Origin: a virus
Taxonomy: Duplodnaviria > Caudoviricetes
DNA length: 64,000 bases
Virus record (IMG/VR): IMGVR_UViG_3300027749_000034
Reading direction: 5' to 3' (one strand)
The position numbers and the translations under genes are program-made. The notes under the pieces were generated by a model. It did no database searches and was not told the origin of the DNA. It saw only the letters and a list, made by a program, of their open reading frames with translations. The stretch's first letter is position 1. Each line of letters begins with the position of its first letter. Positions 27,335 through 53,479 of this stretch are shown here, piece by piece.

Positions 27335-27363
27335 TAAATACATACTTAATATTAAGGATAATC

Positions 27364-30118: not shown

Positions 30119-30123
30119 GCAAT

Positions 30124-30140
30124 TACTTAACCATTAAATA
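30124..30140. promoter_or_regulatory. Back-to-back divergent late promoters
   Basis: Minus-strand TAAGTA (30129-30124) 5 nt before ATG 30118; plus-strand TAAATA (30135-30140) 7 nt before ATG 30148. Confidence 0.6.
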
Positions 30141-30147
30141 TCCGTAG

Positions 30148-31320
30148 ATGACCCCTAACTTAATTTTACCGCATCAGAGCAAAGATAAATTTGGATTCTA
30201 TCAGGTAGGCGACTTCAAAACCTACAGTAAGGTAGAAGCAATTGAGCTGGCCAATAAGACCGGTAACAAAGTACATTGGAATTTTAATGATGCCGAATTT
30301 ACAAATTTTGATTGGACCATTGAGCCACCTGTTTCTTTAAAACAATTGTATCAAGCCCGTGCTAGGCAAATCAGAGAACGCTACGACTACATTGTGCTTT
30401 GGTGGTCAGGTGGCGCAGATAGTTACACCATGCTTCGTGCATTTGTTGATGAAGGATTATTTGTAGATGAACTTGCTACATTCCATAATATGGGCGGAGA
30501 TGGTTCATGGGACACATATCTCAACAGTGAAGTAAAACAAGTGGCCATTCCCGTGGCAGAAAAGATACTAGAGTCTAGTCCAAATACAAAGTTCCGCTTG
30601 GTGGACCATTTGGATTATCAAGCAGACCTGTTTGACAAAGACGATAACAAATTTGATTTTATCTATAAAGCAAATGCTGTGTTTAGTCCAAACCAACAGT
30701 CTCGCAGATATATTAGAGAAAAAGAAAAAGACTACTTAGACCTGTTTGCTCAGGGAAAACGAGTATGCTTTGTATGGGGTATGGACAAGCCAAGGGTAAC
30801 CAATATCAATGGAAAATTTGCCATTCAATTTGTTGACATTGTTGACAATTCGGTTAATCCGTTGACGCAAACGCTAGACCGACCTTGGGAGAACGATGAG
30901 TTCTTTTTCTGGAGTCCAGACGCTAGAGAATTACTAAGCAAGCAAGGACACATTGTCAAGCGTTACTTGAACAACATACCAGATGTTGATTTAAACAGTA
31001 GATGGGTCAGCAGAAAAAGCAATGCGCTAGGACATGTTAAAAAAAATGGAATTACCTGGTTTCTTACCAATGATGGATTACATCGATTAGTTTATCCAGA
31101 TTGGAGCCCGGACACATATACCAGTGGCAAGCATGATTTTTTATTAATGTGGAGTCCTAGAGACGAGTGGTTCCTTAAAGACACCAATGCAGTACATACA
31201 CAAGTATACCGAGCTGGCTTGGAAAAGCTTGCAGAAGTAGTTGGTTCTAACTGGATCAAGATTGGTGGTATCACTAGGGGACTAACCAATTGTCAAAGCT
31301 TACCCTTATTTTTGGAATAA
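30148..31320 (+). CDS. PP-loop (adenine nucleotide alpha-hydrolase) superfamily protein
   Basis: LWWSGGADS PP-loop; lacks the QueC C-terminal Zn-binding Cys cluster. Confidence 0.6.
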   Translation: MTPNLILPHQSKDKFGFYQVGDFKTYSKVEAIELANKTGNKVHWNFNDAEFTNFDWTIEPPVSLKQLYQARARQIRERYDYIVLWWSGGADSYTMLRAFVDEGLFVDELATFHNMGGDGSWDTYLNSEVKQVAIPVAEKILESSPNTKFRLVDHLDYQADLFDKDDNKFDFIYKANAVFSPNQQSRRYIREKEKDYLDLFAQGKRVCFVWGMDKPRVTNINGKFAIQFVDIVDNSVNPLTQTLDRPWENDEFFFWSPDARELLSKQGHIVKRYLNNIPDVDLNSRWVSRKSNALGHVKKNGITWFLTNDGLHRLVYPDWSPDTYTSGKHDFLLMWSPRDEWFLKDTNAVHTQVYRAGLEKLAEVVGSNWIKIGGITRGLTNCQSLPLFLE

Positions 31321-31321
31321 C

Positions 31322-31924
31322 ATGGAAAATATATTTGCACTTAGAAAAAATTATGCACAAGATGCACAACAGATTATGGATTGGTTCCCAGTCATTGTCA
31401 ATGATTTAAAATCATCAAAACTTGGATTGGCCAGAAATGAATCTTTATTAAGACACATTAGGCAAACTCCGGGATTAATTGATACTGTAGATTTTATGAA
31501 TGACATATATGACAAACTTGAATTGTCGGCGGCCTATATTGCGTTGTGTCGTATCAAACCATTTATAGTAACTGTACCAATTCTTGCCAAGGCTCGTACA
31601 GATACATTTGATCCAACAAAAGACCGACAATTTGATGCCACAGTTCCTAATAGAAAATGTAGGCTACATATACCAGTAGCCGCACATAATAATTTACAAG
31701 TACAGTGGATAGATCCAACAGAAAATATTACAGATGAAAATTTTTTTAACGGACCGTTTAGAACTGTTGGTAGTGAATTAGTTCCCGACTCGGCTTATCT
31801 AATTGCACCAGGGCCGTACAGATATATCAATACAGAAAACTTAGAGCATATATACTATGTTGAGGTTGGGTTTGAAAATAATCCAGACTTCGAGGAAATA
31901 AAAGGAAAATTTAATTCTTTATGA
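31322..31924 (+). CDS. Hypothetical protein, Asp/Asn beta-hydroxylase-like cupin fold
   Basis: RLHIPV motif; metal-ligand His residues are not clearly conserved. Confidence 0.4.
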   Translation: MENIFALRKNYAQDAQQIMDWFPVIVNDLKSSKLGLARNESLLRHIRQTPGLIDTVDFMNDIYDKLELSAAYIALCRIKPFIVTVPILAKARTDTFDPTKDRQFDATVPNRKCRLHIPVAAHNNLQVQWIDPTENITDENFFNGPFRTVGSELVPDSAYLIAPGPYRYINTENLEHIYYVEVGFENNPDFEEIKGKFNSL

Positions 31925-32688
31925 AAATAGTTTTAGTCACTGGAGGATTTGATCCTGTACACAGTGGGCATATTGCCTACTTCAAGACTGCAAGAACCCT
32001 GGGTGACATGTTAATTGTTGGTCTCAACAGTGATGAATGGTTAGAACGCAAAAAAGGTCAGGCATTCATGACATGGAACGAACGATTATGTATCGTTAAC
32101 AATTTGAGCATGGTAGATGAAGTTTATACCTTTGACGATGCCGATGATTCAGCTAGACACTTTATCCAACAAGCAAGAGCACATTATCCCAATGCTGAAT
32201 TGATATTTGCCAACGGTGGCGATAGGACCAAAGATAATATTCCAGAAATGGATGTTGTAGATTCTAATTTATCATTTGTATTTGGCGTTGGTGGCACAGA
32301 CAAAAAGAACAGCAGTAGTTGGATCTTAGAAGAATGGAAGAGCCCAAAAACACAACGGCCTTGGGGCTACTATCGTGTATTATATGAAGATGATGTCATG
32401 TTTCATACCAAGGTCAAAGAGCTGACTGTGATGCCTGGCCAAAGTCTAAGCATGCAACGCCATGCCTTTAGAAAAGAGTTTTGGCATGTGGCTCAGGGCA
32501 TGTGTGATGTAACTGCTCGCATGCCATCTGGTTATCAAATGCCTCCTAGAACTCTTAGAGTGCATGACCGAATAGACATACTGGAGAATGAATGGCATCA
32601 ACTTAGCAATCCATACTCAGGACCATGTAAGGTTGTAGAGATACAGTACGGATCAAGTTGCAACGAAGAAGATATTGAACGTCAATAA
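31921..32688 (+). CDS. Cytidylyltransferase fused to mannose-6-phosphate isomerase type II cupin
   Basis: GGFDPVHSGH (HxGH), FANGGDR; C-terminal RPWGYY...QSLSMQRH...EFWHV. Confidence 0.88.
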   Translation: MKIVLVTGGFDPVHSGHIAYFKTARTLGDMLIVGLNSDEWLERKKGQAFMTWNERLCIVNNLSMVDEVYTFDDADDSARHFIQQARAHYPNAELIFANGGDRTKDNIPEMDVVDSNLSFVFGVGGTDKKNSSSWILEEWKSPKTQRPWGYYRVLYEDDVMFHTKVKELTVMPGQSLSMQRHAFRKEFWHVAQGMCDVTARMPSGYQMPPRTLRVHDRIDILENEWHQLSNPYSGPCKVVEIQYGSSCNEEDIERQ

Positions 32689-34153: not shown

Positions 34154-34177
34154 ATTTTGATTGTTCAAAGGAGAAAA

Positions 34178-34540
34178 ATGAACTATTGGGGTTACCACTT
34201 AATTTTAGATTGCGGGCGGTGCAATCCGGATCAAATGAAAGACTTTGACAATGTTGATACCTGGATCCGCCAGTTAGTCAAGGACATCAACATGGAGCCA
34301 ATTGGTGAGCCCAGGATTGAATACACCGCAGGAGAATTTCCTGATAAGGCTGGCTTTACAGTGGTTCAAGTAATTGTTACCAGTAGTATTGTTGCTCACT
34401 TTGTAGATAATCTACAACAGATCTATCTTGATGTTTTTAGTTGTAAAGAATTTGATACAGCCATTGTTGAAGCCAGCATAAAGAAACACTTTGGTGTTGG
34501 TTCAATTAGAAAATACTTTTTAACAAGACAAGCAGATTAA
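34178..34540 (+). CDS. speD: S-adenosylmethionine decarboxylase proenzyme
   Basis: GYHLILDC, G.T.VQVIVTSSIVAH (self-cleavage region), YLDVFSCKEFD; AGGAG SD. Confidence 0.8.
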   Translation: MNYWGYHLILDCGRCNPDQMKDFDNVDTWIRQLVKDINMEPIGEPRIEYTAGEFPDKAGFTVVQVIVTSSIVAHFVDNLQQIYLDVFSCKEFDTAIVEASIKKHFGVGSIRKYFLTRQAD

Positions 34541-36580: not shown

Positions 36581-39229
36581 ATGTTCATTGACGCATATCA
36601 CGATAAGAAAAAAGAAATCATCCATGTTGTAGAACGAGTGGATGGCAAGAGGGTGCTCAAAGAGTATCCAGCAAAGTATGTCTTGTACTATCCTGACAAC
36701 AAAGGCAAGTTCACTGACATTGCTGGCAACAGAGTCAGCCGAGTGCTTTTGAGCAATGCCACAGCATTTGACAAAGAACGGCGTATTCACAGCAACAAAA
36801 AGTTATGTGAAAGCGACTATAGACCGTTGAATCGATGTCTAGAAGAAATCTATGGCGGTCAAGAAGCACCTAAACTTCATGTTGCATTTTTTGACATTGA
36901 GGTTGCATACGATAAGGTCAAGGGCTTTGCTGATCCCAGTGATCCTTTTAATACCATTACAGCAATCACAGTACACCTGGGGTGGCTAGACAGGACTGTT
37001 ACACTGGTTCTCAAGCCAGATGCAATGCCACAGCCACAGGCTGAGGACATTGTTAAACGATTTGATGATACAATCTTGTGTTCCAATGAAAAAGAAATGT
37101 TGGAAATGTTTCTTGACTTGATTGATGATGCAGATGTAATGAGTGGCTGGAACAGTGAAGGATTTGATATCCCATACACTACAAATCGTATCAGCCGTGT
37201 ACTGAGCAAAGAACAAACACGCAAGTTTTGCTTGTGGGATCAGTTTCCTAAAAAGCGAGAGTTTGAAAAGTATGGCAGAACATTGGAAACTTACGATCCA
37301 ATTGGTCGAGTTCACCTGGACTATCTTGAACTGTATCGCAAGTACAACTATCACGAGATGCATACCTATCGCTTGGATGCCATTGGTGAGTACGAGATTG
37401 GTGAAAAGAAAATACCATATGAAGGCTCATTGGATCAGTTGTACAATAATGATTTTGAAAAGTTTATTGCCTACAACAGACAAGACGTCATCTTGCTTAA
37501 AAAATTAGATGCCAAGTTGCAATTTATTGAACTTACTAATCTTATTAGTCATGCCAATACCGTTGGACTTCGTGCAACATTGGGTGCGGTGGCAGTTACA
37601 GACCAAGCAGTCATCAATGAGGCACATGGTCTAGGTATGGTGGTTCCAGATCGTCCACGGCGCAGTGAAGATGCCAAGGACAATGCCGCGGCAGGTGCGT
37701 ATGTTGCTGTGCCCAAAGCAGGCATGCATGAGTGGATCGGAAGTATGGACATTAACAGTCTGTATCCATCTCTAATTCGTGCGCTGAACATGAGCCCAGA
37801 AACCATTGTTGGTCAAGTTAGACAGACACGCACACTGGCCGGTATTGATGACAGCATTGCTTCTGGTCGGGGTATTGCAGACTTTTGGGATGGCAAGTTT
37901 GCTTGCTACGAGTATGAAAGTGTAATGGCCAGGGACATTGGACAAACTGAAACAGTTGATTGGGCTGATGGAACCAGTACACAAATGAGTTCTGCACAAG
38001 TGTACGATTATGTATTCCTTAGTGGACAACCTTTGATTATCAGTGGCAACGGTACAATCTTTAACTATACCAACAAAGGTATCATACCTGGACTGCTAGA
38101 GCGTTGGTACGCCGAGCGTAAAGAATTACAAAAGAAACTCAAAGAAGCAACGACTCCTGAAGAGGTTGAGTTTTGGGACAAACGGCAGTTGGTTAAGAAA
38201 ATTAACTTGAACTCTGCGTATGGTGCGTTGTTGAATGCAGGTTCGAGGTTCTTTGATCAACGACTAGGACAAAGTACTACCTTATGCGGTCGGCTTGTTG
38301 CCAGACACATGGCAGGAAGTGTCAACGACAGCCTAACTGGAGAGCATGATCACACAGGTAAAGCAATTATCTATGGTGACACTGACTCTGTTTACTTCAG
38401 TGCATATCCCATCTTCAAAGAACAAATTGAGAATGGTCAATTTGAATGGACCAAAGAAAAGATCATTGAACTGTATGATGCAATAAGCGAACAGGTAAAT
38501 GATACCTTTCCGGCATTTATGAATACCGCATTTAATTGTCCACAAGCCCAGGGTGAGATTATCAAAGCAGGTCGAGAACTGGTTGCCAGCAAAGGCATCT
38601 ACATGACCAAGAAGCGTTATGCTGTTCTTATCTTTGACAAGGAAGGCAAGCGCAAAGATACAAATGGATCACTGGGCGAACTGAAAGCCATGGGTCTGGA
38701 CATGAAGCGAGCAGACACTCCAGAGTTCATGCAACGGTTCTTGGAAGAAGCATTGACTATGACCCTGGAAGGTAAAACTGAATATGAGGTCATGGCCCGT
38801 GTCAAACAGTTCCGTGAGGAGTTCAAGAGCAGACCTGGTTGGGAAAAGGGCACCCCCAAGCGTGTGAACAATCTAACTAAACATACTGCTGTTTACGAAA
38901 AGACTGGCAAGTGCGGAGTTGGTCATGCCATGGCGGCCATCAACTGGAATCGATTCAAGCAGGCGCACAGTGACAACCGAAGTATGGAAATAACGGATGG
39001 TCAAAAAGCCATTGTTTGTAAACTGAGATCCAACAACTACAACATAACATCTATTGCTTATCCAATTGACGAATTGAATCTTCCAGATTGGTTTAAGCTA
39101 TTACCATTTGATCATACTGCAATGGAAGAAACCATCATTGACAGTAAGATTGAAAACTTGCTAGGTGTATTACATTGGGACTTGAACCAAAGTAAGGACC
39201 GAGGCTTTATCGATGACTTGTTTTCTTAA
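36581..39229 (+). CDS. Family B DNA polymerase (T4 gp43-like)
   Basis: Exonuclease motifs FFDIEV, WNSEGFDIPY, YNRQD; polymerase motifs DINSLYPS, KINLNSAYG, YGDTDS, KKRY; no intein. Confidence 0.96.
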   Translation: MFIDAYHDKKKEIIHVVERVDGKRVLKEYPAKYVLYYPDNKGKFTDIAGNRVSRVLLSNATAFDKERRIHSNKKLCESDYRPLNRCLEEIYGGQEAPKLHVAFFDIEVAYDKVKGFADPSDPFNTITAITVHLGWLDRTVTLVLKPDAMPQPQAEDIVKRFDDTILCSNEKEMLEMFLDLIDDADVMSGWNSEGFDIPYTTNRISRVLSKEQTRKFCLWDQFPKKREFEKYGRTLETYDPIGRVHLDYLELYRKYNYHEMHTYRLDAIGEYEIGEKKIPYEGSLDQLYNNDFEKFIAYNRQDVILLKKLDAKLQFIELTNLISHANTVGLRATLGAVAVTDQAVINEAHGLGMVVPDRPRRSEDAKDNAAAGAYVAVPKAGMHEWIGSMDINSLYPSLIRALNMSPETIVGQVRQTRTLAGIDDSIASGRGIADFWDGKFACYEYESVMARDIGQTETVDWADGTSTQMSSAQVYDYVFLSGQPLIISGNGTIFNYTNKGIIPGLLERWYAERKELQKKLKEATTPEEVEFWDKRQLVKKINLNSAYGALLNAGSRFFDQRLGQSTTLCGRLVARHMAGSVNDSLTGEHDHTGKAIIYGDTDSVYFSAYPIFKEQIENGQFEWTKEKIIELYDAISEQVNDTFPAFMNTAFNCPQAQGEIIKAGRELVASKGIYMTKKRYAVLIFDKEGKRKDTNGSLGELKAMGLDMKRADTPEFMQRFLEEALTMTLEGKTEYEVMARVKQFREEFKSRPGWEKGTPKRVNNLTKHTAVYEKTGKCGVGHAMAAINWNRFKQAHSDNRSMEITDGQKAIVCKLRSNNYNITSIAYPIDELNLPDWFKLLPFDHTAMEETIIDSKIENLLGVLHWDLNQSKDRGFIDDLFS

Positions 39230-39245
39230 AACGGAGAACAAGCAG

Positions 39246-39274
39246 TTGACTTTAGATCTAAATCTAACTACAAT
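39246..39274 (+). promoter_or_regulatory. Sigma70-like promoter with palindromic spacer
   Basis: TTGACT, 17 nt, TACAAT; spacer TTAGAT-CTAA-ATCTAA. Confidence 0.7.
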
Positions 39275-39294
39275 AGTAACATTAACGGAGAAAC

Positions 39295-40032
39295 ATGACA
39301 ATGCTAAAAGACATTACGCTTGATGTAGCAAAAAACATCGCAGGACTAGGAATCTTTGAAGAGATCCTGGTTGAACAAGAACCAAACAGTACAAAATTTA
39401 CTGCGTATCCGGAAGATTCATTGCTGACTGTACTTGCCAACAGCAAGGACAAGGTCACAGAGTTTCCTGAGGCATGCGGCATGCTTAACTTGGGCTTCTT
39501 TGTTGGCTTGACAAACTTATACAAAGATCCAGATGTTACAAAAAAGTGTAATGTCACAGTTGGATCAAACAACAAAGGTGATGTTGATCGTTTGGCATTC
39601 AACAATGCAGACGGCAACAATGACGAATATCGTTTGACGCCAACTAACCTGATGAAGACCAAGAGTCGTAGTTTTAACGGCACAACTTGGGAAGTAGTTG
39701 TTAGTCCACAAGCAAATAAAATCAGTGAGCTGAGCCAGCGCGGTACATTGTATGCCACCATTGACCCAAATTTAACTGCAAGCACAGAGAATGGCAAGTT
39801 GGTTTTTAGCTTTGGTGGAAGTGCTGGTGGTGGTCATGCAGGTAAGTTTGTATTTGCTGACACTACACAAACCTTGAAGCGTCCAGTATCCTTGTCAATT
39901 CAGGCTTTGTTAACTGCATTTAAAATGTGTAGCCAAGGCACACCGGTGTTGAGCATCAGTGAGCGAGCTACCAAGGTTGAATTTAACAGTGGCTTAATTG
40001 CTTACGAATACATTACTCCAACACAGAAGTAA
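39295..40032 (+). CDS. Probable DNA sliding clamp (gp45/PCNA-like)
   Basis: About 245 aa, beta-rich two-domain pattern, directly after the DNA polymerase; inferred from size, position and pattern. Confidence 0.55.
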   Translation: MTMLKDITLDVAKNIAGLGIFEEILVEQEPNSTKFTAYPEDSLLTVLANSKDKVTEFPEACGMLNLGFFVGLTNLYKDPDVTKKCNVTVGSNNKGDVDRLAFNNADGNNDEYRLTPTNLMKTKSRSFNGTTWEVVVSPQANKISELSQRGTLYATIDPNLTASTENGKLVFSFGGSAGGGHAGKFVFADTTQTLKRPVSLSIQALLTAFKMCSQGTPVLSISERATKVEFNSGLIAYEYITPTQK

Positions 40033-40036
40033 GAAT

Positions 40037-41596
40037 ATGCCAAGTAAAAAAAGTAAAGTTGACTTGTGGGCTAAGAATGAAGACTATGCAGTTTTCTTGC
40101 CTAGTATCTCATCTTTTTACAATACCATTATTAGTAAAGAACGAAACGAGCCCGGCGTTAGTGTAAAAGCTGACCGTGTTCCAAAAGAATTTGAAAATGG
40201 TATTGAGGGTATGAACTTCCTTAACAAGGAACAAGCATACTTTTACTATCCTTATGCACTATATTCTGCGGGCCATGCACAGCTGGATCTCAAGAAGACT
40301 GACAAAGAAGAAGCAATGGTTCAACAACGAGATCGCAAGAATACTTTTATTCTAGGCGACTCTGGTGGATTCCAAATTGCAAAAGGTGTCATCAAGTTTG
40401 ACTGGGAAAACTTTATGGAGAAGCCAGGTGATGCTGGCTACAAAGGTTCTGCAGACAAGACTCGCGGCGCAATTTTAAATTGGTTAGAGCATACTGCTGA
40501 CTATTCGATGGTATTGGATATTCCAACCTGGGCGGCACGACCACCACTGAACGAACGCACTGGTCTAAAGTCATTCCAACAATGTTTGGATGGCACACTT
40601 TACAACAATGCATGGTTCTTGGCCAATCGACAAAACAAAACAAAGTTTCTAAATGTGTTACAGGGTAGTAACAATGAAGAAGCAGACATTTGGTACGACA
40701 ATGTTAAACACTTCCCATTTGAAGGTTGGGCAATGGGTGGTAACAACATGCAAGACGCACACTTGGTTCTCCGTAGACTAATTCAAATGCGTGACGAAGG
40801 TATGTTGGCGCCAGGTAAGGATGTCATTCACTTCTTGGGCACAAGTCGTTTAGAATGGACAATTTTCTTAACTGCAATTCAGCGAGCATTGCGAGAACAT
40901 GTCAATCCAAACATGCTAGTAACATATGATTGTGCAAGTCCATTTGTTTCTGTGGCATACGGACTAAGCTATACACAACATGTGCATAGCAATGATCGCT
41001 TTACCTATGTGATGGAAAAGGCTGTGGATAACCGAGACCTAAGTGGATCTAAAATTCCATGGCCTTGGAACAGTCCAATCGGTGAACGCTTGACCATGGG
41101 CGATGTGTGCTATTACAAACCAGGTCAAGAAAATAAAAATGGTAAGGTTTCAAGAACAAGTTGGGACACATTCAGTTATAGTCTTATTATGGGCCATAAT
41201 GTTTACCAACACATTGAAAGTGTACAGCGAGCCAACACACTTGCTGACATTGCACACAAGTTGAATCGTCCAGACCCAGCCGAATGGCGCAAAGGTCGGC
41301 AAAGAAGTCAGGAAGGACAGGTTGACTTATGGGTACCTCGTAATGTATTATACATAATGGAACTAGTAGATCAAGTGTTTAGAGTTGAGAACCCATATGA
41401 ATTGTTAGAACAAAGTTCTGCATTGCTAAGTGAGTTCTCTGGACGCAAGACTCGTAAGAGTGGTGCAGAAGCTGTGCATGATATTTTTACCACTGGTGAT
41501 GGTACCAGTGCAAATGAAATGGCAGAAGGTGGAGAGTTTGATGATATGAACGATCCTAAACTAACTGAACTTGAACAATCGCTTAAGGATGAATGA
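40037..41596 (+). CDS. dpdA: DpdA-type 7-deazaguanine DNA transglycosylase (TGT fold)
   Basis: LGDSGGFQ, MVLDIP, NVLQG, GWAMGG, IHFLG and TYDCASP match TGT/DpdA catalytic motifs; FolE and QueE lie nearby. Confidence 0.82.
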   Translation: MPSKKSKVDLWAKNEDYAVFLPSISSFYNTIISKERNEPGVSVKADRVPKEFENGIEGMNFLNKEQAYFYYPYALYSAGHAQLDLKKTDKEEAMVQQRDRKNTFILGDSGGFQIAKGVIKFDWENFMEKPGDAGYKGSADKTRGAILNWLEHTADYSMVLDIPTWAARPPLNERTGLKSFQQCLDGTLYNNAWFLANRQNKTKFLNVLQGSNNEEADIWYDNVKHFPFEGWAMGGNNMQDAHLVLRRLIQMRDEGMLAPGKDVIHFLGTSRLEWTIFLTAIQRALREHVNPNMLVTYDCASPFVSVAYGLSYTQHVHSNDRFTYVMEKAVDNRDLSGSKIPWPWNSPIGERLTMGDVCYYKPGQENKNGKVSRTSWDTFSYSLIMGHNVYQHIESVQRANTLADIAHKLNRPDPAEWRKGRQRSQEGQVDLWVPRNVLYIMELVDQVFRVENPYELLEQSSALLSEFSGRKTRKSGAEAVHDIFTTGDGTSANEMAEGGEFDDMNDPKLTELEQSLKDE

Positions 41597-42114
41597 TGTC
41601 TATTGATCGCGTTGCACCGGACTTCTTTACTGGCATTGAAGTTGAACACAGCCCTGCACTTGGAATGAATACACTATTTGTAGTTGGTATCCATCCTGGT
41701 GAGGAAATTGTAAAACTTGCCAAAGAGAAAAAGATTGGTCACATTTACATTGGTGCTAATATGAGTCTGCACCATGTGGAAAATGACAATCACGATGTTT
41801 GGCGATCAATTGACGACATGATCAATAAGGTGCTTGAAGATCAGAGTATTCACTATGTCACAGTTGATATACAGCTAAGTCAAGTTGAGGGATTTTTAGA
41901 AAGTATGGCCAGTGACGAACATCGCGTCATTCCAATGATTTCGGCCAAACTACCATACACTAGATTGCTTAACTACAATACAACCGTTAAAATCGACGAT
42001 AAAGGTTTTAACAAAACGAATCCTGGGGTGTGGTGCGTTCCTTTAAGTGACTTAACTGATAGGAAGTATTTTACTCCGTGGATAGCCTACCAAGGCGATA
42101 GCCCTGTTAATTAA
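41593..42114 (+). CDS. Hypothetical protein translationally coupled to dpdA
   Basis: ATGA overlap with the dpdA stop; no recognised motif. Confidence 0.65.
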   Translation: MMSIDRVAPDFFTGIEVEHSPALGMNTLFVVGIHPGEEIVKLAKEKKIGHIYIGANMSLHHVENDNHDVWRSIDDMINKVLEDQSIHYVTVDIQLSQVEGFLESMASDEHRVIPMISAKLPYTRLLNYNTTVKIDDKGFNKTNPGVWCVPLSDLTDRKYFTPWIAYQGDSPVN

Positions 42115-42130
42115 ATTTAAGGAAAATGAA

Positions 42131-42352
42131 ATGAACGACGAAGTCAAGGTTGGTAATTTTACTAAACCAATTAAGCGACCAGTTCCAAAAACTGCTGGCG
42201 CACCTGTTAGAGAAGAAGCACCTGAGACAGCTGTAGGTGGAGATGCTGGGATTGCTGATCTTAACAAAAAAATGGACAAGCTTTTAGAATTTGCTCAGGC
42301 AATTGACTGGAAGTTGTGGGTCTACTTAAAAGCAAATAATTACATCGAGTAA
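42131..42352 (+). CDS. Hypothetical protein
   Basis: AAGGA SD; C-terminal helix. Confidence 0.6.
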   Translation: MNDEVKVGNFTKPIKRPVPKTAGAPVREEAPETAVGGDAGIADLNKKMDKLLEFAQAIDWKLWVYLKANNYIE

Positions 42353-42361
42353 AGGAATAAC

Positions 42362-42733
42362 ATGTCACAAGACATGATTTGGGTTACCTTTCGTAAGGAA
42401 GGCATTCATAGGTATCCGGCTGCACTTACGGATGCTAAATTGGCAACAGGTGACGAGTATGATGTTTCTTTTTTAGGACATCCTCATCGACACATGTTCC
42501 ACTTTAAAGTGTATCTCGAAGTCTTCCATGACGATAGAGATGTGGAGTTTATTCAGTTCAAGCGTTGGTTGGAGAATTTATATAACCAAGGAACACTTGA
42601 GTTGAATCACAAGTCCTGCGAAATGATGGCAGATGACCTACATGGTCAAATCTCATCAAAGTACACAGATCGTAAAATTTGGATTGAAATTTCGGAGGAT
42701 GGCGAAAATGGATGCCTCAAACAATACTCTTGA
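42362..42733 (+). CDS. QueD-paralog T-fold protein with LxxxHRHxF motif (DpdL-like candidate CDG decarboxylase)
   Basis: EGIH near the N-terminus, FLGHPHRHMF, DRDVEFIQFK, HKSCE; HRH replaces the canonical QueD CxxxHGH. Confidence 0.7.
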   Translation: MSQDMIWVTFRKEGIHRYPAALTDAKLATGDEYDVSFLGHPHRHMFHFKVYLEVFHDDRDVEFIQFKRWLENLYNQGTLELNHKSCEMMADDLHGQISSKYTDRKIWIEISEDGENGCLKQYS

Positions 42734-43169
42734 CAATCGCGTTCGTTTTGAACGCAAAGATCGCGGAAACTATAATCCGCAGTACCAGGCTCGCCGAGCT
42801 GGACTTAACATCAACCACATCAAGTTTGACTTGCTAAAAATTAGCGAGTTATATGACGGTGTGTTGACAGCAGAGCTAGGGCACTTGCCACTAGCGTTCT
42901 ACAATCAGTATCTTACTGATCTGTGCCATGCTGGTATGATCTATGGTTATGCCATTGACTTGCCAGAAATGCGTAGGCATGAGCCAACAGGTGATCGCAG
43001 TTTCACCTACACTATCAATGTGCAAAGTGCAGTTGATCGTGCAAACAAGGCACTTAAAATCCATGTGGGATTTTATAAGAGTGCATGGGCAGGTGAAACT
43101 GTGCATACCGAAGATGGTATGTGCTGTATGCCTAATCGCTTGGATCGCGATGAGGTAGTAAATGCGTAA
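42708..43169 (+). CDS. Hypothetical protein
   Basis: GGAGG SD 9 nt before ATG 42708; overlaps both neighbours. Confidence 0.55.
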   Translation: MDASNNTLDNRVRFERKDRGNYNPQYQARRAGLNINHIKFDLLKISELYDGVLTAELGHLPLAFYNQYLTDLCHAGMIYGYAIDLPEMRRHEPTGDRSFTYTINVQSAVDRANKALKIHVGFYKSAWAGETVHTEDGMCCMPNRLDRDEVVNA

Positions 43170-44340
43170 GCTCTTTTATATGGGCTTGGAGCCCTATGAA
43201 GGAAGATACACCCTTCAACTCCAGCAATGGAATGAAGCGGTGTTCAAACGCCGGGGCATTGACTATGTGTTAGTACCCGGCAGTACCATTGACAATACCA
43301 AAGCAATCAGTGTTGGTCAAGTGTTAGACGCACATGGTCGCAGTTACTTTGGTATGAGCCAGATGATGAATCTGGTGCAGATGATGCGCCGTGGTGATGT
43401 CACCAGTGAAGATGTCATCTACTTTGAAGACATGTTTCAACCCGGCATTGAAAGCTTGCCTTACATTCTAGATCAAGTGCCTGCCAACTTGCGACCACGC
43501 ATATATGTTCGTTGTCTGGCCCAGGCCATTGACCCAGATGACTTTGTGCATGTATGGGGTATGAGCAAATGGATGAGTACATATGAACAAATGGTCAATT
43601 GTTTTGTCACAGGTGTACTTGCTACAAATGAAGAGATGGTTGCCCATATGCGTATTGCTAATTGGACTGCTCCTATCTATAACATTAGCGGTCTAGCATA
43701 TGGCAAAGAAGAAGTTCTTGGCCGAGTTAATAATAAAGTTAAGTCCTGGTCTGAAAGAGCTCATCGTGTTGTATTTGCCGCAAGGTTTGACCAAGAGAAG
43801 CAACCAGACTTCTTTATGGATCTCATTGAGAAGTGGCATGCCGAACAACCTGACAATCCAGTTGAGTTTGCTGTATTAAGTGGTGGACCATTGCGTAGTA
43901 ACAATCCCAAATACTTAGAGCGTGCCTATAAAATGGCGGCACAGGGAAAACTCAAGATTTATGAGGACCTTAATAAAAATGAGTACTATAATATTGTCAA
44001 CGATAGTCGTGTGCTGTTTAATTGTGCTTTACAAGACTGGGTTTCAAACACCGTCAGCGAGGCCGACACTCTTGGCTGTAATGTTTTGTATCCTGCTTAT
44101 CGTAGTTTTCCAGAAACATTCGCCAATGATCATACCAGACTATATGTTCCTTGGTCGTTAGATGATGCCATACAAAAACTTCGAGTTCAGTTATCTGGTG
44201 TTCATGTCAATCAAGGCAAGATTAGTGATTGGAACAATGGCACTATCGACCGTGTGCTAGATATCATGCAAGGCACAGGTGAACAATGGAATCGGGCCGG
44301 TAACAGATATCGTGACCATATTGCAGAGGCAAAGTACTAA
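43162..44340 (+). CDS. GT-B fold glycosyltransferase (GT4-like)
   Basis: VFAARFDQEK donor-binding loop; LQDWVSNTVSEADTLGCNVLYP C-terminal nucleotide-binding motif. Confidence 0.75.
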   Translation: MRKLFYMGLEPYEGRYTLQLQQWNEAVFKRRGIDYVLVPGSTIDNTKAISVGQVLDAHGRSYFGMSQMMNLVQMMRRGDVTSEDVIYFEDMFQPGIESLPYILDQVPANLRPRIYVRCLAQAIDPDDFVHVWGMSKWMSTYEQMVNCFVTGVLATNEEMVAHMRIANWTAPIYNISGLAYGKEEVLGRVNNKVKSWSERAHRVVFAARFDQEKQPDFFMDLIEKWHAEQPDNPVEFAVLSGGPLRSNNPKYLERAYKMAAQGKLKIYEDLNKNEYYNIVNDSRVLFNCALQDWVSNTVSEADTLGCNVLYPAYRSFPETFANDHTRLYVPWSLDDAIQKLRVQLSGVHVNQGKISDWNNGTIDRVLDIMQGTGEQWNRAGNRYRDHIAEAKY

Positions 44341-45329
44341 TGGAAAAATGGGTAGCTATAACAGGGTGTAATGGTTACATTGGTGGGCAGACTGTTTTAA
44401 AATTCAAAGATGCTGGTTACAATGTCATTGGTGTAGACCGCAACAATACTGCTCCTTGGATTACAGAAAGAGTCGATCGTTATATCAACGGTGACTTTAA
44501 CAATCCAATGTTTACCAGTTTGATTATACAAAACAATCCTGTTGCATTGATACACATTGCCGGAACCAGTCTAGTGGGACCAAGCATACAAGATCCAGCA
44601 CCCTATTATTTAAATAATGTTGGTAATACTGCCAACATGTTGGGAATGTTGGCTCGCAATGGCTGGAACAAGACTGTGGTCTTCTCAGGTAGTGCCGCCA
44701 TCTATGGAAACCCCGGAGCCCATTCTATCACAGAAGAAACTCCTCGACTTCCAATCAGTCCATATGGACACAGTAAACTTATGGCAGAGCAGGTATTAAG
44801 AGATTGTGCATTTGGATATGGATTCAAAACTATATCGTTGCGATACTTCAATGCTTGTGGTGCAGACAACATGGTCAGGCATGGTCAATTGAAAAAGGCA
44901 ACGCACCTAATTGCTAAAATTATGGAAAGTATTGTCAACCAAGATGTGTTTACTTTAAACGGCACAAACTATTCTACTCCCGACGGTACTTGCATTAGAG
45001 ACTATTTGCATGTTGAAGATATTGCCAATGCTCATTACCTGTCAACCATGTATGCAGAAACCATGGAAGTACCCAGTGTTGAGTTTAATCTAGGAACTGG
45101 TAAAGGTGTTAGCATTAGAGAAATTATTTCCAGTGTTGAACGCATTACTGGAAAAACTGTTTTGGTACATACTGGCGGTGCAAGAGCCGGCGATCCTGAA
45201 GTACTGGTTGCAAGTTCTAACAAAATTAAAATGCAAATGGGATGGGTACCAGAGAACAGCAAGATTGATAATATTGTGCGTAGTGCATGGGATTGGTACA
45301 ACTCAGTAGAATTTAAGAGTCGAGCATGA
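44340..45329 (+). CDS. galE: UDP-glucose 4-epimerase
   Basis: ITGCNGYIGG, HIAG, YGHSK (YxxxK), LRYFNACGAD, GTCIRDYLHVED, RAGDP. Confidence 0.9.
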   Translation: MEKWVAITGCNGYIGGQTVLKFKDAGYNVIGVDRNNTAPWITERVDRYINGDFNNPMFTSLIIQNNPVALIHIAGTSLVGPSIQDPAPYYLNNVGNTANMLGMLARNGWNKTVVFSGSAAIYGNPGAHSITEETPRLPISPYGHSKLMAEQVLRDCAFGYGFKTISLRYFNACGADNMVRHGQLKKATHLIAKIMESIVNQDVFTLNGTNYSTPDGTCIRDYLHVEDIANAHYLSTMYAETMEVPSVEFNLGTGKGVSIREIISSVERITGKTVLVHTGGARAGDPEVLVASSNKIKMQMGWVPENSKIDNIVRSAWDWYNSVEFKSRA

Positions 45330-45754
45330 AAGTAGGTTTCACTTGTTCAACCTTTGATTTGCTACATGCTGGCCATGTTTCCATGTTACAAGAAGCAAAG
45401 ACCAAATGCGACTACTTAATTTGTGGATTGCAAAATGATCCAACGCTGGATCGTGTCACAAAGAATAAACCTGTACAGACCATTGTAGAACGACAGATGC
45501 AACTCAAAGGCAGTCGTTATGTTGACGAAGTGTGGGTCTACAACACAGAAAAAGATCTAGAAGATCTACTATTAACATTACCTATTAATGTGCGTATACT
45601 AGGAGTTGAATATGAAAACAAAGAATTCACTGGTAGAGAAATTTGTCACAAGCGTAATATTGATCTATATTTTAATGGTCGTGATCACAGTTTTAGTTCA
45701 AGCAGTTTAAGAAAACGAGTGTACGAGGCACAGATACAAAAGGAACAACAATGA
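45326..45754 (+). CDS. Cytidylyltransferase (TagD/glycerol-3-phosphate CTase-like)
   Basis: TFDLLHAGH, ER..QL..SRYVDE, RDHSFSSSSL. Confidence 0.88.
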   Translation: MKVGFTCSTFDLLHAGHVSMLQEAKTKCDYLICGLQNDPTLDRVTKNKPVQTIVERQMQLKGSRYVDEVWVYNTEKDLEDLLLTLPINVRILGVEYENKEFTGREICHKRNIDLYFNGRDHSFSSSSLRKRVYEAQIQKEQQ

Positions 45755-46732: not shown

Positions 46733-47470
46733 ATGAACGAACCTGTAACATTTAATAACATAGACGACAAGGGCTATGAAGAAGCCAATCTAGCAGATGT
46801 GATTCGATTCAAGATGAAGCGAGATAACAAACGCTTCTGGGCAGGCGATAACATTAGCGAATATGTAACTGACGAACATAAAGAAATCTTAATCAAAGAG
46901 GCCGCAGAAGCATTTGAAACAGTGCTAGACAGTTTGTTAATTGACAGAGAAACAGATCCCAACAGCAAAGGTACTGCTAAACGATTAGCTAAAATGTATT
47001 TTAATGAAGTAATGGCAGGTAGATATGAACCATCCCCAGATGCAACAGCTTTTCCAAATGATAGTGACGACCGCTACGAAGGTATGTTGGTCGTGCGTAG
47101 CGAACTTCGTAGTATGTGTAGTCATCATCACCAACCCGTTTCTGGTGTTGCCTATATTGGCATTATTGCCGCTAATAAACTTATTGGCCTATCAAAGTAT
47201 ACACGGATCGCCCAGTGGTGTGCCCGACGTGGTACTCTCCAGGAGGAACTTTGTAATGATATTGCTCGGGAAATTAGCAAAGCAACAGGCGCAACAGACT
47301 TAGGCGTATACATTCAAGCCACTCACGGATGCTGTGAAAATCGCGGCATCATGGCACACTCCAGTCTTACACAGACTACTGTGCTCAAAGGTGCCTTTAA
47401 GGACGACCAAAGTACAAAGAAAGAATTCTTTGATAACATTAAAATGCAACAAGAATTTGCTCCACGGTGA
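46733..47470 (+). CDS. folE: GTP cyclohydrolase I
   Basis: TAKRLAKMY, SMCSHHHQP, IGLSKYTRI, LQEEL, ATHGCCENRG. Confidence 0.94.
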   Translation: MNEPVTFNNIDDKGYEEANLADVIRFKMKRDNKRFWAGDNISEYVTDEHKEILIKEAAEAFETVLDSLLIDRETDPNSKGTAKRLAKMYFNEVMAGRYEPSPDATAFPNDSDDRYEGMLVVRSELRSMCSHHHQPVSGVAYIGIIAANKLIGLSKYTRIAQWCARRGTLQEELCNDIAREISKATGATDLGVYIQATHGCCENRGIMAHSSLTQTTVLKGAFKDDQSTKKEFFDNIKMQQEFAPR

Positions 47471-47473
47471 ACT

Positions 47474-47995
47474 ATGGACAATGACTCAAAAAACAAATTG
47501 AAAGACGTACTGTCTACTATAGATCCTGTTGAGTTCAAATGGGACGAGACCAATACAACTGTTGGCGGCAAAAATGCACAGGATGTTTCTACCATCACTC
47601 TTTCCGGAGACCTGTATGATATTGGTATGAATACCATGGGCAGTATCGACCTAACCAACATTGGACTCAGTAACGGCATTACAACAATTGGTGGATCAGG
47701 AGCAGGCTTTACTATAGCAGGAAACTTGTCAGCAGGAAATATCAGTTACAATACCAGTGCTTCAATTCTTTCTGCAGACACCACTGAGTATGGTAAGACT
47801 ACAATCAAAACTGCCAAGAACACAATTGACTTAGATGAGCTGGCTGATATGATGGAAACATTGAAGAAGCGGTTGCTGATCATAGCACCTAACTTTGAAA
47901 TGCATGAAAAATATCCCATGCTCAAGGAAATGTACAACGAGTACAAAGCAATGGAAAAACTATTAGGCGGCCCAGAATCGTCGGAAGAAAAATAA
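47474..47995 (+). CDS. Hypothetical protein (Thr/Gly-rich middle, helical C-terminus)
   Basis: ORF track. Confidence 0.6.
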   Translation: MDNDSKNKLKDVLSTIDPVEFKWDETNTTVGGKNAQDVSTITLSGDLYDIGMNTMGSIDLTNIGLSNGITTIGGSGAGFTIAGNLSAGNISYNTSASILSADTTEYGKTTIKTAKNTIDLDELADMMETLKKRLLIIAPNFEMHEKYPMLKEMYNEYKAMEKLLGGPESSEEK

Positions 47996-48513
47996 TGTTA
48001 AAAAAATGTTCATTGTCCTGGGGCGACATAGAGTATCTGGCCCATACCATTGTCCGTGATATCAATGTGAGTGGTTGGCGGCCTGATATTATCATTGGCA
48101 TTGATCGTGGCGGATTAATTCTCAGTAACATGCTCAGTCATTACTTAGAGATTCCACATACCAGTGTCAAAGTGTCGTTGAGAGATTTTGAAGACACCGA
48201 ATCGTTGTTATGGGCACCAGAAGAAGTGTTGGCTGGCAAGAAAATATTACTGGTAGATGACATAAATGATTCGGGTGCAACTCAAGCATGGCTTAAAGAA
48301 GATTGGGCCAGTTCTGTGGCCGGTGTAGAGCCAGATTTCGTCGACAAGCATTGGCATAAATCAGTTCGTTTGGCCGTTTTGGTTGACAATGAGGCTAGCG
48401 ACCAGTATACTGACTATTGTGGTATGATTGTTAACAAAGTTGAAAAAGATGTATGGATCGACTTCCCGTGGGAGTCTTGGTGGACAAGGAGCACATATGA
48501 AAGTGGGATTTAG
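47995..48513 (+). CDS. Type I phosphoribosyltransferase (xanthine-guanine PRT-like)
   Basis: IIGIDRGGL, LLVDDINDSGAT (PRPP loop), WIDFPWE. Confidence 0.88.
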   Translation: MLKKCSLSWGDIEYLAHTIVRDINVSGWRPDIIIGIDRGGLILSNMLSHYLEIPHTSVKVSLRDFEDTESLLWAPEEVLAGKKILLVDDINDSGATQAWLKEDWASSVAGVEPDFVDKHWHKSVRLAVLVDNEASDQYTDYCGMIVNKVEKDVWIDFPWESWWTRSTYESGI

Positions 48514-49235: not shown

Positions 49236-49999
49236 ATTTAGAAACATTTGCTTCTCTGATCAGACTGTATGATTGTCCGCGACTCAATGAAAAATACAAA
49301 GGTATTATTTCATTGCCGTTGGCATTGCCAAAATTTGAATTAGACAATGCTGATGAATTTTGGAAGATTTGGGATTCGCAGAACGAAACAGTACATCGAC
49401 AACATATTGACCGTGGCGCGGTTGGAAAAGATCCTGCTAAAGTATCAAAGTTATATACTCAATGGGATGGGTTGGCACTATACGAAGACAAGTCATTGCT
49501 TGATCAAGCGGCATGGCGGACAACAGTATCTAAAGAATTAGCAGATTCTCAACCAACTTATCTTAAATCAATTTTAGGAATATTACCGTTTACAAAAGTT
49601 AGATCCATCCGATTATGGAGCAACCATAAAGTTATTCCAGCACACTATGATGGCAATCTCCCATCAAGTATAGATGGTAAAATGCGATTTCCAACTGAGA
49701 TCCGTTTGATGTTGCATGATGAAAATCCAATTGAAACATTCTACTTGACACTAGCAAATAAATATCCTCCGCACACAGACATTCCACTGCATGATCGATA
49801 CTATGTAAAATTACCAAATGATACTAATACATTTGCATGGAACAATGAAGACTACTTACATGGAGCAGACTTTAATCCAAAGTATAAAAAAATACTTGTT
49901 GTGATCAAAGGATGGGTTCACTTGGGACGATTAGAAAAGTTGCTAGATGCAAGCATAGAAAAATATCCAGATTTTATATTAAGAGAGAAAAATGACTAA
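49232..49999 (+). CDS. Hypothetical protein, 2OG-Fe(II)/cupin-like
   Basis: IPAHYDG (HxD) and distal YLHGA. Confidence 0.45.
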
Positions 50000-50786
50000 A
50001 GTTATCATACAGGGCCAAGGTACAGTTGGCCAATCAACTGAAATGTTTTTGAGAACATTTGTTCCTGAGATTGAGATTGAATTCAATGATCCAGGCAAGG
50101 ATGTTGTTGCTGACCCGAGTAGTTGGGCAGTGGCCGACTATGTCATTGTTTGTGTCAATACAGATTTGAATGATTCGGAAATATTGCCCGAGAATGATAC
50201 ATCATGCGTTGATGCGGCAATCAACGAAGCATTACAAAATGAATTCAGAGGGAAAATCATTGTAAGAAGTACCATTGGTGTAGAGTCTGCTGTAAAATTA
50301 GAAAAACAGTTAGGGCAAAATTTAATTATTTGGCCAGAATACATTCGTGAAGCCACTTGGAAAGAAGATAGTGTTAATCCAACAATGGTTGTCATTGGTG
50401 GTGAGGCCACAGAAGAATTTGCAAATGTGATCAGCCTGTATAAGGGAACACTATTAATAACTGATGCGGTTGAAGCAATGATTGCCAAGTTAAGCACAAA
50501 CACATTCTTGGCAATGAAAGTTATCTTTGCCAATCAAGTAAGACAACTGTGCGAGAAAAATGCGGCTTCATATGAGATAGTACAACAGCTACTACAATCA
50601 GAGGGTCGACTTGGATCAAGTCATTGGCAAAGTCCTGGTCCAGATGGGCAAGCCGGATATGGCGGCAAATGCTTTCCTAAAGATGTCAGGACTTTTGAAG
50701 CGGCCCTGGTCAAGTCTGGAATACATGTTGACTTGATCCGTGCTATCAGTGACCTCAATAGAGAAATGCGACCTAATGGCAACTAA
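49992..50786 (+). CDS. Short UDP-glucose dehydrogenase-like protein lacking the C-terminal domain
   Basis: GQGTVG, RSTI, PEYIRE, AKLSTNTFLAMKV, GYGGKCFPKD; only 264 aa. Confidence 0.8.
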   Translation: MTKVIIQGQGTVGQSTEMFLRTFVPEIEIEFNDPGKDVVADPSSWAVADYVIVCVNTDLNDSEILPENDTSCVDAAINEALQNEFRGKIIVRSTIGVESAVKLEKQLGQNLIIWPEYIREATWKEDSVNPTMVVIGGEATEEFANVISLYKGTLLITDAVEAMIAKLSTNTFLAMKVIFANQVRQLCEKNAASYEIVQQLLQSEGRLGSSHWQSPGPDGQAGYGGKCFPKDVRTFEAALVKSGIHVDLIRAISDLNREMRPNGN

Positions 50787-52155: not shown

Positions 52156-52355
52156 AAACAAGAGAACAAATTATTACTAGAATGTGCTACACATGGCGAC
52201 ATGACTATGGACTCCGTAAAGGTGGCGCCGAGGACTACGGCACTAAATTCAGTGCTGGTATGACAGATGAAGAAGCAAGGTCATTATGGAATCAAATGGC
52301 TCAGATCTTTGATAACGATATTGCACCCTACATGGAAATTAAAAATGGACAGTAA
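52152..52355 (+). CDS. Hypothetical protein
   Basis: ATGA coupling. Confidence 0.55.
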   Translation: MKTREQIITRMCYTWRHDYGLRKGGAEDYGTKFSAGMTDEEARSLWNQMAQIFDNDIAPYMEIKNGQ

Positions 52356-52617
52356 ACTTTACGAAATTATGAACATTCTCTCGGAGGAATGTGCCGAAGT
52401 GATTCAGGCTGTTAGCAAATGCAATCGTTTTGGATTGGACAATATGAAGCCAGGCAAGCCGCTAACTAATGCACAGCACTTAGAAGGTGAAATTGGTGAT
52501 TTACTTGCCATGGTAGACCTGTTACAATCGTTGGGTGTAGTAACAGTCGAAGGCATGGAAGCCGCGAAGCAAGCCAAGTTTGAGAAACTAAAGAAATGGT
52601 CCAGCATATATGAATGA
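52345..52617 (+). CDS. MazG-like NTP pyrophosphohydrolase
   Basis: EECAEV...EIGDLL (EXXE...EXXD). Confidence 0.8.
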   Translation: MDSKLYEIMNILSEECAEVIQAVSKCNRFGLDNMKPGKPLTNAQHLEGEIGDLLAMVDLLQSLGVVTVEGMEAAKQAKFEKLKKWSSIYE

Positions 52618-53479
52618 ATTTAAAGTAAGCGAAATATTTTACAGCGCACAAGGCGAAGGTCGCTTTGTTGGCGTACCTAGTGTGTTCTTTAGAACATTTG
52701 GTTGTAACTTTAAGTGTGCGGGCTTTGGCTTGCCCACAGGTGAAAAGACCACTGAGCCAGATGACATTGGTAAAGTGGTACACCTGTACCCAACCTTCAA
52801 TGACTTACCACTGGCCAATACCGGTTGTGACAGTTACGCAAGCTGGCATCCTGCATTCAAACATCTAAGTCCTAACTATAGTGTTGAGCAGGCAGTTGAT
52901 GCTATGTTAGACTTGACACCCAACAATCACTGGGAACAGAACAATGGTAATGATGTACATTTGGTCATCACAGGTGGTGAGCCGTTGTTGGGTTGGCAAC
53001 AATTGTATCCTGCATTGTTAAGCAATAGCCGTATGAGTGACTTGGCCAATTTGACATTTGAAACAAATGGTACTCAGAAATTGCATGATGACTTTCATAC
53101 CTATCTGTTTGAAGAATGGACTAGGTTTGGCCGAGACCGCGACTATCTTACATTCAGTGTTAGCCCCAAGCTGACTTCCAGTGGTGAGAAATGGTCAGAT
53201 GCTATTAAACCTGATGTAGTTGTTGAATATCAAACACTTGGTTACACCTATTTAAAATTTGTAATTGACAACATCATGGACTTTAAAGAAGTAGACCAAG
53301 CAGTCGGTGAATACCGTGCGGCAGGCTTTGGTGGACAAGTTTATGTGATGCCGGTGGGCGGCACAGACAAAGCATACTTTTCTAACACAAGACACATTGC
53401 TGATGAAGCACTGGCCAGAGGCTATCGTTATAGTCCCAGGTTGCATGTTGACATTTGGTCCAATGGTTGGGGCAAGTGA
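52610..53479 (+). CDS. queE: 7-carboxy-7-deazaguanine synthase (radical SAM)
   Basis: EIFYSAQGEG, FFRTFGCNFKC...CDS, VITGGEP, FETNGT, VSPK, VMPVGG, RYSPRLHV. Confidence 0.88.
   Translation: MNEFKVSEIFYSAQGEGRFVGVPSVFFRTFGCNFKCAGFGLPTGEKTTEPDDIGKVVHLYPTFNDLPLANTGCDSYASWHPAFKHLSPNYSVEQAVDAMLDLTPNNHWEQNNGNDVHLVITGGEPLLGWQQLYPALLSNSRMSDLANLTFETNGTQKLHDDFHTYLFEEWTRFGRDRDYLTFSVSPKLTSSGEKWSDAIKPDVVVEYQTLGYTYLKFVIDNIMDFKEVDQAVGEYRAAGFGGQVYVMPVGGTDKAYFSNTRHIADEALARGYRYSPRLHVDIWSNGWGK

Follow-up and report, generated by a model that had tools for sequence, protein, structure and literature searches.

The closest described relative of the system considered here is the DpdA3/DpdL system of Cellulophaga phage phiST, whose DNA has been proven to contain plain 2'-deoxy-7-deazaguanosine (dDG) (PMC10516641). 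The dDG is attributed to DpdL, a paralog of QueD that is proposed to decarboxylate 7-carboxy-7-deazaguanine (CDG) and for which the signature LxxxHRHxF has been given (Cui et al. 2023; PMC10516641). A further relative is the Pseudomonas jumbo phage PA5oct, whose DNA resists restriction at G-containing sites and is attacked by nucleases that recognize hypermodified DNA; a modified G was deduced in that study, which reports no chemistry for it (PMC12191111). Here we analyze a 64,000-nucleotide stretch of the Caudoviricetes record IMGVR_UViG_3300027749_000034 (hereafter the window), in which a run of genes next to the DNA polymerase contains dpdA and dpdL together with a gene for a glycosyltransferase (GT). 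We favor, with a probability of roughly 55%, the hypothesis that the window encodes a 7-deazaguanine DNA-modification module of the phiST type with a dedicated GT that glycosylates 7-deazaguanine before or after its insertion into DNA.

The phiST system combines FolE, QueD and QueE without QueC, an LxxxHRHxF DpdL and a divergent DpdA with the fold of tRNA-guanine transglycosylase (TGT), beside the DNA polymerase (PMC10516641), and the window resembles this arrangement in its FolE, QueE, DpdL and TGT-fold DpdA. A MazG-like gene adjoins DpdL in phiST and the window has MazG too, and no QueC-like gene was found among the open reading frames (ORFs) scanned in the 64 kb. By motif and similarity, the protein encoded at 42362-42733, described in an earlier note on this DNA as an HRH T-fold protein, is DpdL: it reads L-GHP-HRH-M-F, matching LxxxHRHxF in place of CxxxHGH, and in a tblastn search it is 31% identical to phiST CGPG_00067 over 93% of the query (E 9e-7). 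In contrast to the window, phiST has no glycosyltransferase, GalE or hyp173 (an orphan protein discussed below), and its DpdA3 is a short 259-aa protein to which the 519-aa form of the window matches weakly.

This long protein, encoded at 40037-41596, has no match in Pfam (including PF01702), NCBIfam or PHROGs, and sequence and profile searches of PDB sequences gave nothing meaningful. Its AlphaFold2 (AF2) model has a mean predicted local distance difference test (pLDDT) score of 85.8, and the top 50 Foldseek matches in the PDB are all TGT (E about 6e-8, probability 1.0). Residues D108-S-G-G-F-Q113 and D298 are invariant in its homologs (n = 25, 38-78% identity), and we take these DSGGFQ-type and second-aspartate (FDC-type) motifs to be the catalytic-aspartate motifs of TGT. 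Jackhmmer places the protein in one family with proteins of ACP17, BCSR5 and BUCT-ZZ01 and with the one annotated as TGT in Xanthomonas phage X1, relatives in this family match PF01702 below threshold (E 9e-4 and 0.04), and gp316 of PA5oct is 38% identical to it. The earlier assignment as dpdA is thus upheld by the DSGGFQ motif and the fold match, and not by family databases. Judged by its modeled fold, the protein is a long-form DpdA, a candidate TGT-fold DNA transglycosylase with a putative role in exchanging guanine in DNA for 7-deazaguanine. DpdA3 of phiST was likewise recognized only by HHpred (PMC10516641).

The evidence that ties the GT to these genes is comparative. We assembled 167 GT loci, which span two deep clades and include seven cultured phage lineages, two hits in prokaryote genomes, and uncultured loci sampled as 80 close (IMG/VR, GT 74-94% identity) and 80 distant ones (GT about 30-35% identical). 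DpdL lies within 10 kb of the GT in 154 of the 167, usually adjacent and with a median gap of 200-320 bp, and in 10 of the 13 loci without a nearby DpdL the contig is cut off no more than about 1.3 kb from the GT. One fully flanked locus has DpdA and lacks DpdL; otherwise no GT was seen without deazaguanine genes. A DpdA-type gene is present within 10 kb in 72/80 and 74/80 uncultured loci of the two sets, the remainder being cut contigs, so that homologs of this GT occur mostly beside DpdA and not, as would have spoken against the idea of the earlier note, mostly without it. The close loci keep the order PolB-clamp-DpdA-hyp173-DpdL-GT-GalE-FolE; among them the GT is still 74-77% identical where the polymerase PolB has fallen to 52-58% and the clamp to 21-29%, and no other protein of the module is as well conserved. 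The distant clade retains DpdL (74/80), QueE (65/80) and FolE (57/80), and FolE is syntenic in most GT loci.

Cultured carriers of the GT-DpdL pair, whose gene orders differ, are BUCT-ZZ01, ACP17, PA5oct, X1/BUDD, Phosso and BCSR5, the seventh lineage being the clade of the window. PA5oct is similar to the window in that DpdA (38% identity), GT, DpdL and QueE form one run; it differs in having a truncated short-chain dehydrogenase/reductase (SDR) for GalE and no hyp173. Only two members of the GT family were found in 185,579 prokaryote genomes, both on phage-like contigs of metagenome-assembled genomes with DpdL-GT-QueD-QueE-FolE. These scans used one degenerate pattern each, one of which found the two loci and another none, and they suggest that the family is nearly absent from cellular genomes. 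The smallest recurrent set is QueD-QueE-FolE-DpdL-GT plus a DpdA.

Because the pairing of GT and DpdL recurs across deep lineages, rearranged gene orders and the hits in cellular genomes, it is very unlikely that the GT is merely adjacent to dpdA, an alternative that the earlier note had left standing, and the case for a functional coupling of the GT to the deazaguanine module appears strong. Of the interpretation offered in that note, this coupling is the part that stands; the part that involved a cytidylyltransferase and a polyol-phosphate does not, as described below. It could still be argued that the GT and the sugar-nucleotide genes are directed at virion proteins, host lipopolysaccharide or the cell wall and lie near dpdA by chance or through shared early expression. 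Clusters of polysaccharide-modifying GTs are found in jumbo phages (PMC7824862), and the window holds other sugar genes, namely two UDP-glucose dehydrogenase-like genes and a second nucleotidyltransferase, fused to a cupin. However, such a target would not account for a linkage to DpdL that survives changes of gene order, for the lack of family members outside deazaguanine loci (the single fully flanked locus has DpdA), or for a GT better conserved than PolB, and we give this reading a very slim chance.

The association is also asymmetric. Searches of the whole records of the DpdL phages phiST, RHph_I1_18, Bakedbeans, Ahp1 and D479 recovered the GT in 0/5, with a positive control of 5/5. These GT-free phages all carry a short DpdA3 of the phiST type (locus and positions: L173:8798-9577, L090:9683-10540, L089:9420-10292, L086:11065-12333 and L087:16036-17016). 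This form is found in none of the 167 GT loci, which instead carry either the long DSGG[FL]Q DpdA or a DSGAHS protein of 335 aa; because the five lineages are not phylogenetically independent, this contrast carries limited weight. DpdL without the GT therefore exists, whereas the GT without DpdL essentially never does, at least in the loci compared. Given that the dependence is one-way, the GT is best placed downstream of DpdL, where it would act on a substrate peculiar to the DpdL branch. Moreover, since the DpdA subfamily co-varies with the presence of the GT, the transglycosylase is probably co-adapted with it, as expected if the base that it handles differs, for example by being already glycosylated.

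The 335-aa protein has invariant D-S-G and V-D-S motifs and is encoded one or two genes after the GT in 38 distant loci (e.g., L100:12197-13204), so that the 74 DpdA-type genes of the distant set consist of 36 long DpdA genes and 38 motif-level candidates. It is possibly another DpdA subfamily, a motif-level assignment that is unconfirmed by hhalign against the long DpdA (probability 2.5%) and by Pfam (no match), with nothing meaningful among PDB sequences. The protein occurs in phage genomes of 80-100 kb without a recognizable TGT: in five complete carriers of this size, neither PF01702 nor A1 detected one. In Vibrio phage Bakedbeans, which lacks the GT, gp176 (L087:8212-9363) consists of a DpdL domain with an N-terminal extension of ~260 aa.

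The AF2 model of the GT (pLDDT 94.8) has a two-Rossmann-domain GT-B fold of the GT4 type. It matches BshA, MshA, GlgM and PimA with E values of 1e-13 to 1e-9 and template-modeling (TM) scores of 0.6-0.7, and the closest folds are retaining GT4 enzymes with small-molecule acceptors (BshA, MshA, SenB, LmbT and GlgM). At the sequence level the match to Pfam Glycos_transf_1 is 18.7 bits (E 1e-3), below the gathering cut-off of 26.4; the 72%-identical homolog of BUCT-ZZ01 gives 26.5 and 28.3 bits, and PDB sequences gave no match to the GT. Across 66 diverse homologs, the most distant at 26% identity, R208, E212 and K213 never vary and E300 is nearly invariant. Placed by eye on the R/K and EX7E positions of GT4 enzymes, these residues are compatible with a functional site for a nucleotide sugar. 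The family is large, with at least 8000 close sequences and 842 clusters (50% identity), nearly all of them viral, and it is mildly acidic, with a median isoelectric point of 5.8. The DpdA family is equally acidic, and global charge is therefore uninformative as a proxy for DNA binding.

The alpha- and beta-glucosyltransferases of T4 (AGT and BGT) share with this GT the GT-B fold, a UDP-hexose donor as predicted for the GT, a replication-associated phage gene and an anti-restriction rationale. They differ in that their acceptor is a hydroxymethyl-pyrimidine, for which no pathway was seen in the scanned window ORFs, and in that the GT family of the window is acidic. The comparison with these T-even enzymes that the earlier note had drawn does not extend to kinship: BGT and AGT are both missing from the top 50 PDB and the top 30 Swiss-Prot fold matches, and the GT resembles them no more than it does other GT-B enzymes, its nearest folds being GT4. 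All DNA glycosylation known to us proceeds via a hydroxymethyl-pyrimidine handle, which favors the view that the GT modifies another DNA base, such as a hydroxymethylated pyrimidine, or else a pathway protein such as DpdA, with both marks being required together. A protein named DNA alpha-GT, from Cyanophage S-TIM5, also appears at rank 20 of the BFVD matches to the GT. However, neither the scanned window ORFs nor the five-gene QueD-QueE-FolE-DpdL-GT cassettes showed a thymidylate-synthase-like hydroxymethylase, and the one-way dependence on DpdL would go unexplained; of the explanations considered here we find this one the least credible. In BUCT-ZZ01, two glycosyltransferases flank DpdA-DpdL (L001:9010-10353 and L001:12001-13167), of which one is the homolog 72% identical to that of the window and the other, of 447 aa, has marginal similarity to it.

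In animal tRNA, mannosyl- and galactosyl-queuosine carry a sugar on a nucleoside derived from 7-deazaguanine within a nucleic acid. There, however, the sugar is attached to the cyclopentenediol side chain of queuosine and the polymer is RNA; no such side chain is expected in the phage, because its pathway is without QueC, QueA and QueG. The GT4-domain (PF13439) enzyme HuiG of huimycin biosynthesis uses a UDP-sugar to glycosylate a free 7-deazapurine base on one of its nitrogens (bioRxiv 10.64898/2026.04.15.718813). HuiG, likened to the GT by its domain and reaction, differs in being cellular (from actinomycete secondary metabolism), in acting on a preQ0-derived, O-methylated base and in giving a free metabolite. 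This precedent nevertheless suggests that the GT might glycosylate a free 7-deazapurine or an intermediate, with the product remaining outside DNA as a soluble metabolite that is huimycin-like or serves as a stored or detoxified base. Both the small-acceptor GT4 enzymes among its nearest folds (BshA, MshA, SenB and LmbT) and its acidity would suit such a role. Against it, the GT lies in the replication module beside the DNA transglycosylase in nearly all well-flanked loci, its family is nearly absent from cellular genomes, the makers of such metabolites, as far as single-pattern scans reveal, and the DpdA subfamily co-varies with its presence. We consider a soluble product unlikely.

The co-occurrence of FolE, a T-fold protein similar to QueD and 6-pyruvoyltetrahydropterin synthase (PTPS), an SDR-fold gene and a GT is also what a pterin glycoside pathway would require, that is, a cofactor or pigment pathway that shares FolE, like the biopterin-glycoside route of cyanobacteria and Chlorobium. 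Pteridine glycosyltransferases are known (PMC5683033; PMC4133829), and the carrier BUCT-ZZ01 infects Synechococcus elongatus. However, DpdL lacks the cysteine that is catalytic in QueD and PTPS, the SDR is a genuine GalE rather than a sepiapterin reductase, QueE and DpdA, which pterins do not need, travel with the cassette, and phiST DNA contains dDG (PMC10516641). We therefore regard a pterin product as very unlikely.

Returning to a glycosylated 7-deazaguanine in DNA, we infer its route from the genes, their folds and the near-obligate linkage of GT and DpdL. FolE, a QueD (none was found in the window) and QueE would convert GTP to CDG, from which DpdL would strip the carboxyl to give 7-deazaguanine, as extrapolated from phiST (PMC10516641). 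The long TGT-fold DpdA would exchange guanine in phage DNA for 7-deazaguanine, a phosphoribosyltransferase similar to hypoxanthine-guanine phosphoribosyltransferase (HGPRT) may recycle the released guanine towards GTP, and the GT4-like GT, with UDP-galactose or UDP-glucose from GalE, would attach a hexose to the 7-deazaguanine nucleus. The nucleus itself is the predicted site because there is no universal enzyme to install a hydroxyl handle. One candidate acceptor is C7, which would be free only after decarboxylation and would therefore explain the dependence on DpdL; another is the 2-amino nitrogen, as in huimycin. The sugar could be put on the free base before DpdA inserts it, which would agree with the small acceptors of the GT4 relatives and with the change of DpdA subfamily, or it could be added to dDG within DNA. 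Large C7 substituents are tolerated by TGT-type enzymes. For thousands of uncultured phages as well as PA5oct, ACP17, X1, BCSR5, Phosso and BUCT-ZZ01, we tentatively suggest, at somewhat less than even odds, a hexose on the deazapurine nucleus (C7 or N2) in DNA, made by a GT4 enzyme, perhaps on the free base, and then inserted by a specialized long DpdA.

Several points weigh against this proposal. 7-Deazaguanine has no hydroxyl and the module has no universal functionalizing enzyme, so that the acceptor chemistry would be unprecedented for DNA, and we know of no GT4 enzyme that forms C-glycosides. The GT family is mildly acidic and is no nearer to the T4 DNA glucosyltransferases than is any other GT-B. 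QueD was not found in the 64-kb window, where FolE, QueE and DpdA accompany DpdL. The decarboxylase activity of DpdL is itself only predicted (PMC10516641). Literature searches found no mass-spectrometric report of a glycosylated deazaguanine and no paper on one in DNA.

In relation to what is known, the module appears to be a variant of the Dpd/dDG system whose predicted product would be a DNA base of a new kind. If the proposal is true, this base would be the first purine of any genome to carry a sugar and would define a new class of DNA hypermodification, and the transfer of a glycosyl group to a pyrrolopyrimidine would be a new enzyme chemistry. The base would also account for the uncharacterized modified G of PA5oct-like phages, which are therapeutic candidates. 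Given the abundance of the GT family, the mark may be widespread in viromes of fresh and marine waters, with practical relevance for evasion of restriction and CRISPR, for sequencing artifacts and for enzyme tools that label G sites.

Among the accessory genes, GalE abuts the GT in 62/79 close loci and is present in 30/80 distant ones, in agreement with its earlier designation as a partner of the GT; this recurrence suggests a donor of the UDP-Gal or UDP-Glc type. In PA5oct a truncated, epimerase-like Rossmann protein of 172 aa (L083:9636-10154) takes the place of full-length GalE. The nucleotidyltransferase at 45326-45754, for which TIGR02199 gives 68 bits, under the cut-off of that model, occurs in 26/80 close and 0/80 distant loci. 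It was therefore rejected as a core part of the module, and because this cytidylyltransferase is confined to the subclade of the window, the polyol-phosphate proposed in the earlier note is without comparative support.

The orphan protein hyp173 is found in 66/79 close and 43/80 distant GT loci and is absent from several cultured carriers, PA5oct among them. It has no match in Pfam, PHROGs, NCBIfam or PDB sequences and no usable match in the ESM Atlas. In nine loci, each time just upstream of the GT, a single ORF encodes DpdL with a homolog of hyp173 as its C-terminal domain (L097:9253-9996, L101:8834-9730, L139:9036-9959, L158:9126-9986 and five more), a gene fusion that is a Rosetta-stone link between the two proteins. 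Similarly, an HGPRT-like gene recurs in the module and is fused with FolE in 13 distant loci (L093:8599-9603, L097:8299-9210 and 11 more). These fusions suggest that the HGPRT-like enzyme may salvage the guanine freed by base exchange and feed GTP back to deazaguanine synthesis. In the distant loci L100:11437-12195, L113:11447 and L121:11334, a second radical S-adenosylmethionine (SAM) gene, QueE-like, comes immediately after the GT or DpdL, and the canonical QueE is present upstream as well.

The module begins directly after the family-B DNA polymerase PolB (36581-39229) with nine plus-strand ORFs (39295-45754; table 1), and the tightly packed run beside the polymerase, like FolE and QueE downstream of it, was found where the earlier note had put it. 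Because neighboring ORFs overlap by 1-8 bases or lie 9-16 bases apart, translational coupling along the run is plausible. The sole true intergenic gap, 39230-39294, contains a sigma-70-like match, and such matches are not commoner in this region than in shuffled sequence. The window is phage-like, and a near-identity DNA search of the region against the phage collection returned no match.

Table 1. Genes of the deazaguanine-glycosyltransferase module and its downstream supply genes, with positions in the window.
Feature	Position	Strand	Basis or remark
Sliding-clamp-like protein	39295..40032	+	phrog_12062, E 6e-22
Long-form DpdA, TGT-fold DNA transglycosylase candidate, 519 aa	40037..41596	+	Motif and fold
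hyp173, orphan 173-aa protein	41593..42114	+	Recurrent partner of DpdL
73-aa hypothetical protein	42131..42352	+	Subclade-specific, ~20 close loci only
DpdL, QueD paralog, proposed CDG decarboxylase	42362..42733	+	LxxxHRHxF motif; phrog_17812
~145-aa hypothetical protein	about 42699..43169 (start uncertain, ORF opens 42633)	+	Subclade-specific, 22 loci only
GT4-like GT-B glycosyltransferase (GT)	43162..44340	+	AF2 fold
UDP-glucose 4-epimerase GalE	44340..45329	+	TIGR01179, 297.4 bits vs cut-off 262.3
Small HIGH-type nucleotidyltransferase, RfaE domain II/TagD-like	45326..45754	+	PF01467, E 2e-11
GTP cyclohydrolase I FolE	46733..47470	+	PF01227, E 6e-39
HGPRT-like phosphoribosyltransferase	47995..48513	+	PF00156, E 1.5e-13
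MazG-like pyrophosphohydrolase	52267..52617	+	PF03819, E 1e-5
QueE, CDG synthase, radical SAM	52610..53479	+	45% identity to annotated QueE of BUCT-ZZ01

Jackhmmer ties the clamp-like protein to the "DNA polymerase III sliding clamp beta" of Phosso and to a neighbor of DpdA in PA5oct, and its gene is syntenic in 57/80 close loci. The 73-aa and ~145-aa hypothetical proteins have no family match in Pfam, PHROGs or NCBIfam. Downstream of 45754 follow a PGDYG protein, glutaredoxin, FolE, the HGPRT-like gene, ferredoxin, a short UDP-glucose-dehydrogenase-like gene, a metallophosphoesterase, MazG and QueE, the last of which has sub-threshold matches to five NCBIfam QueE models. The short dehydrogenase-like ORF (49992-50786, 264 aa), which is kept in the subclade, has the NAD-binding and central domains and is apparently without the C-terminal UDP-binding domain.

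A separate cluster at 23987-32688, upstream of the replication genes, encodes a radical-SAM protein of 491 aa, a SAM methyltransferase, a UDP-glucose/GDP-mannose dehydrogenase of full length and, on the minus strand, an oxidoreductase resembling NMO/IMPDH. It also encodes a nucleotidyltransferase fused to a cupin of the mannose-6-phosphate-isomerase type, and the cluster may represent another pathway, for a sugar nucleotide or for a modification. The window also encodes an S-adenosylmethionine decarboxylase (34157-34540; PF02675, E 1e-15), about 2 kb upstream of PolB.

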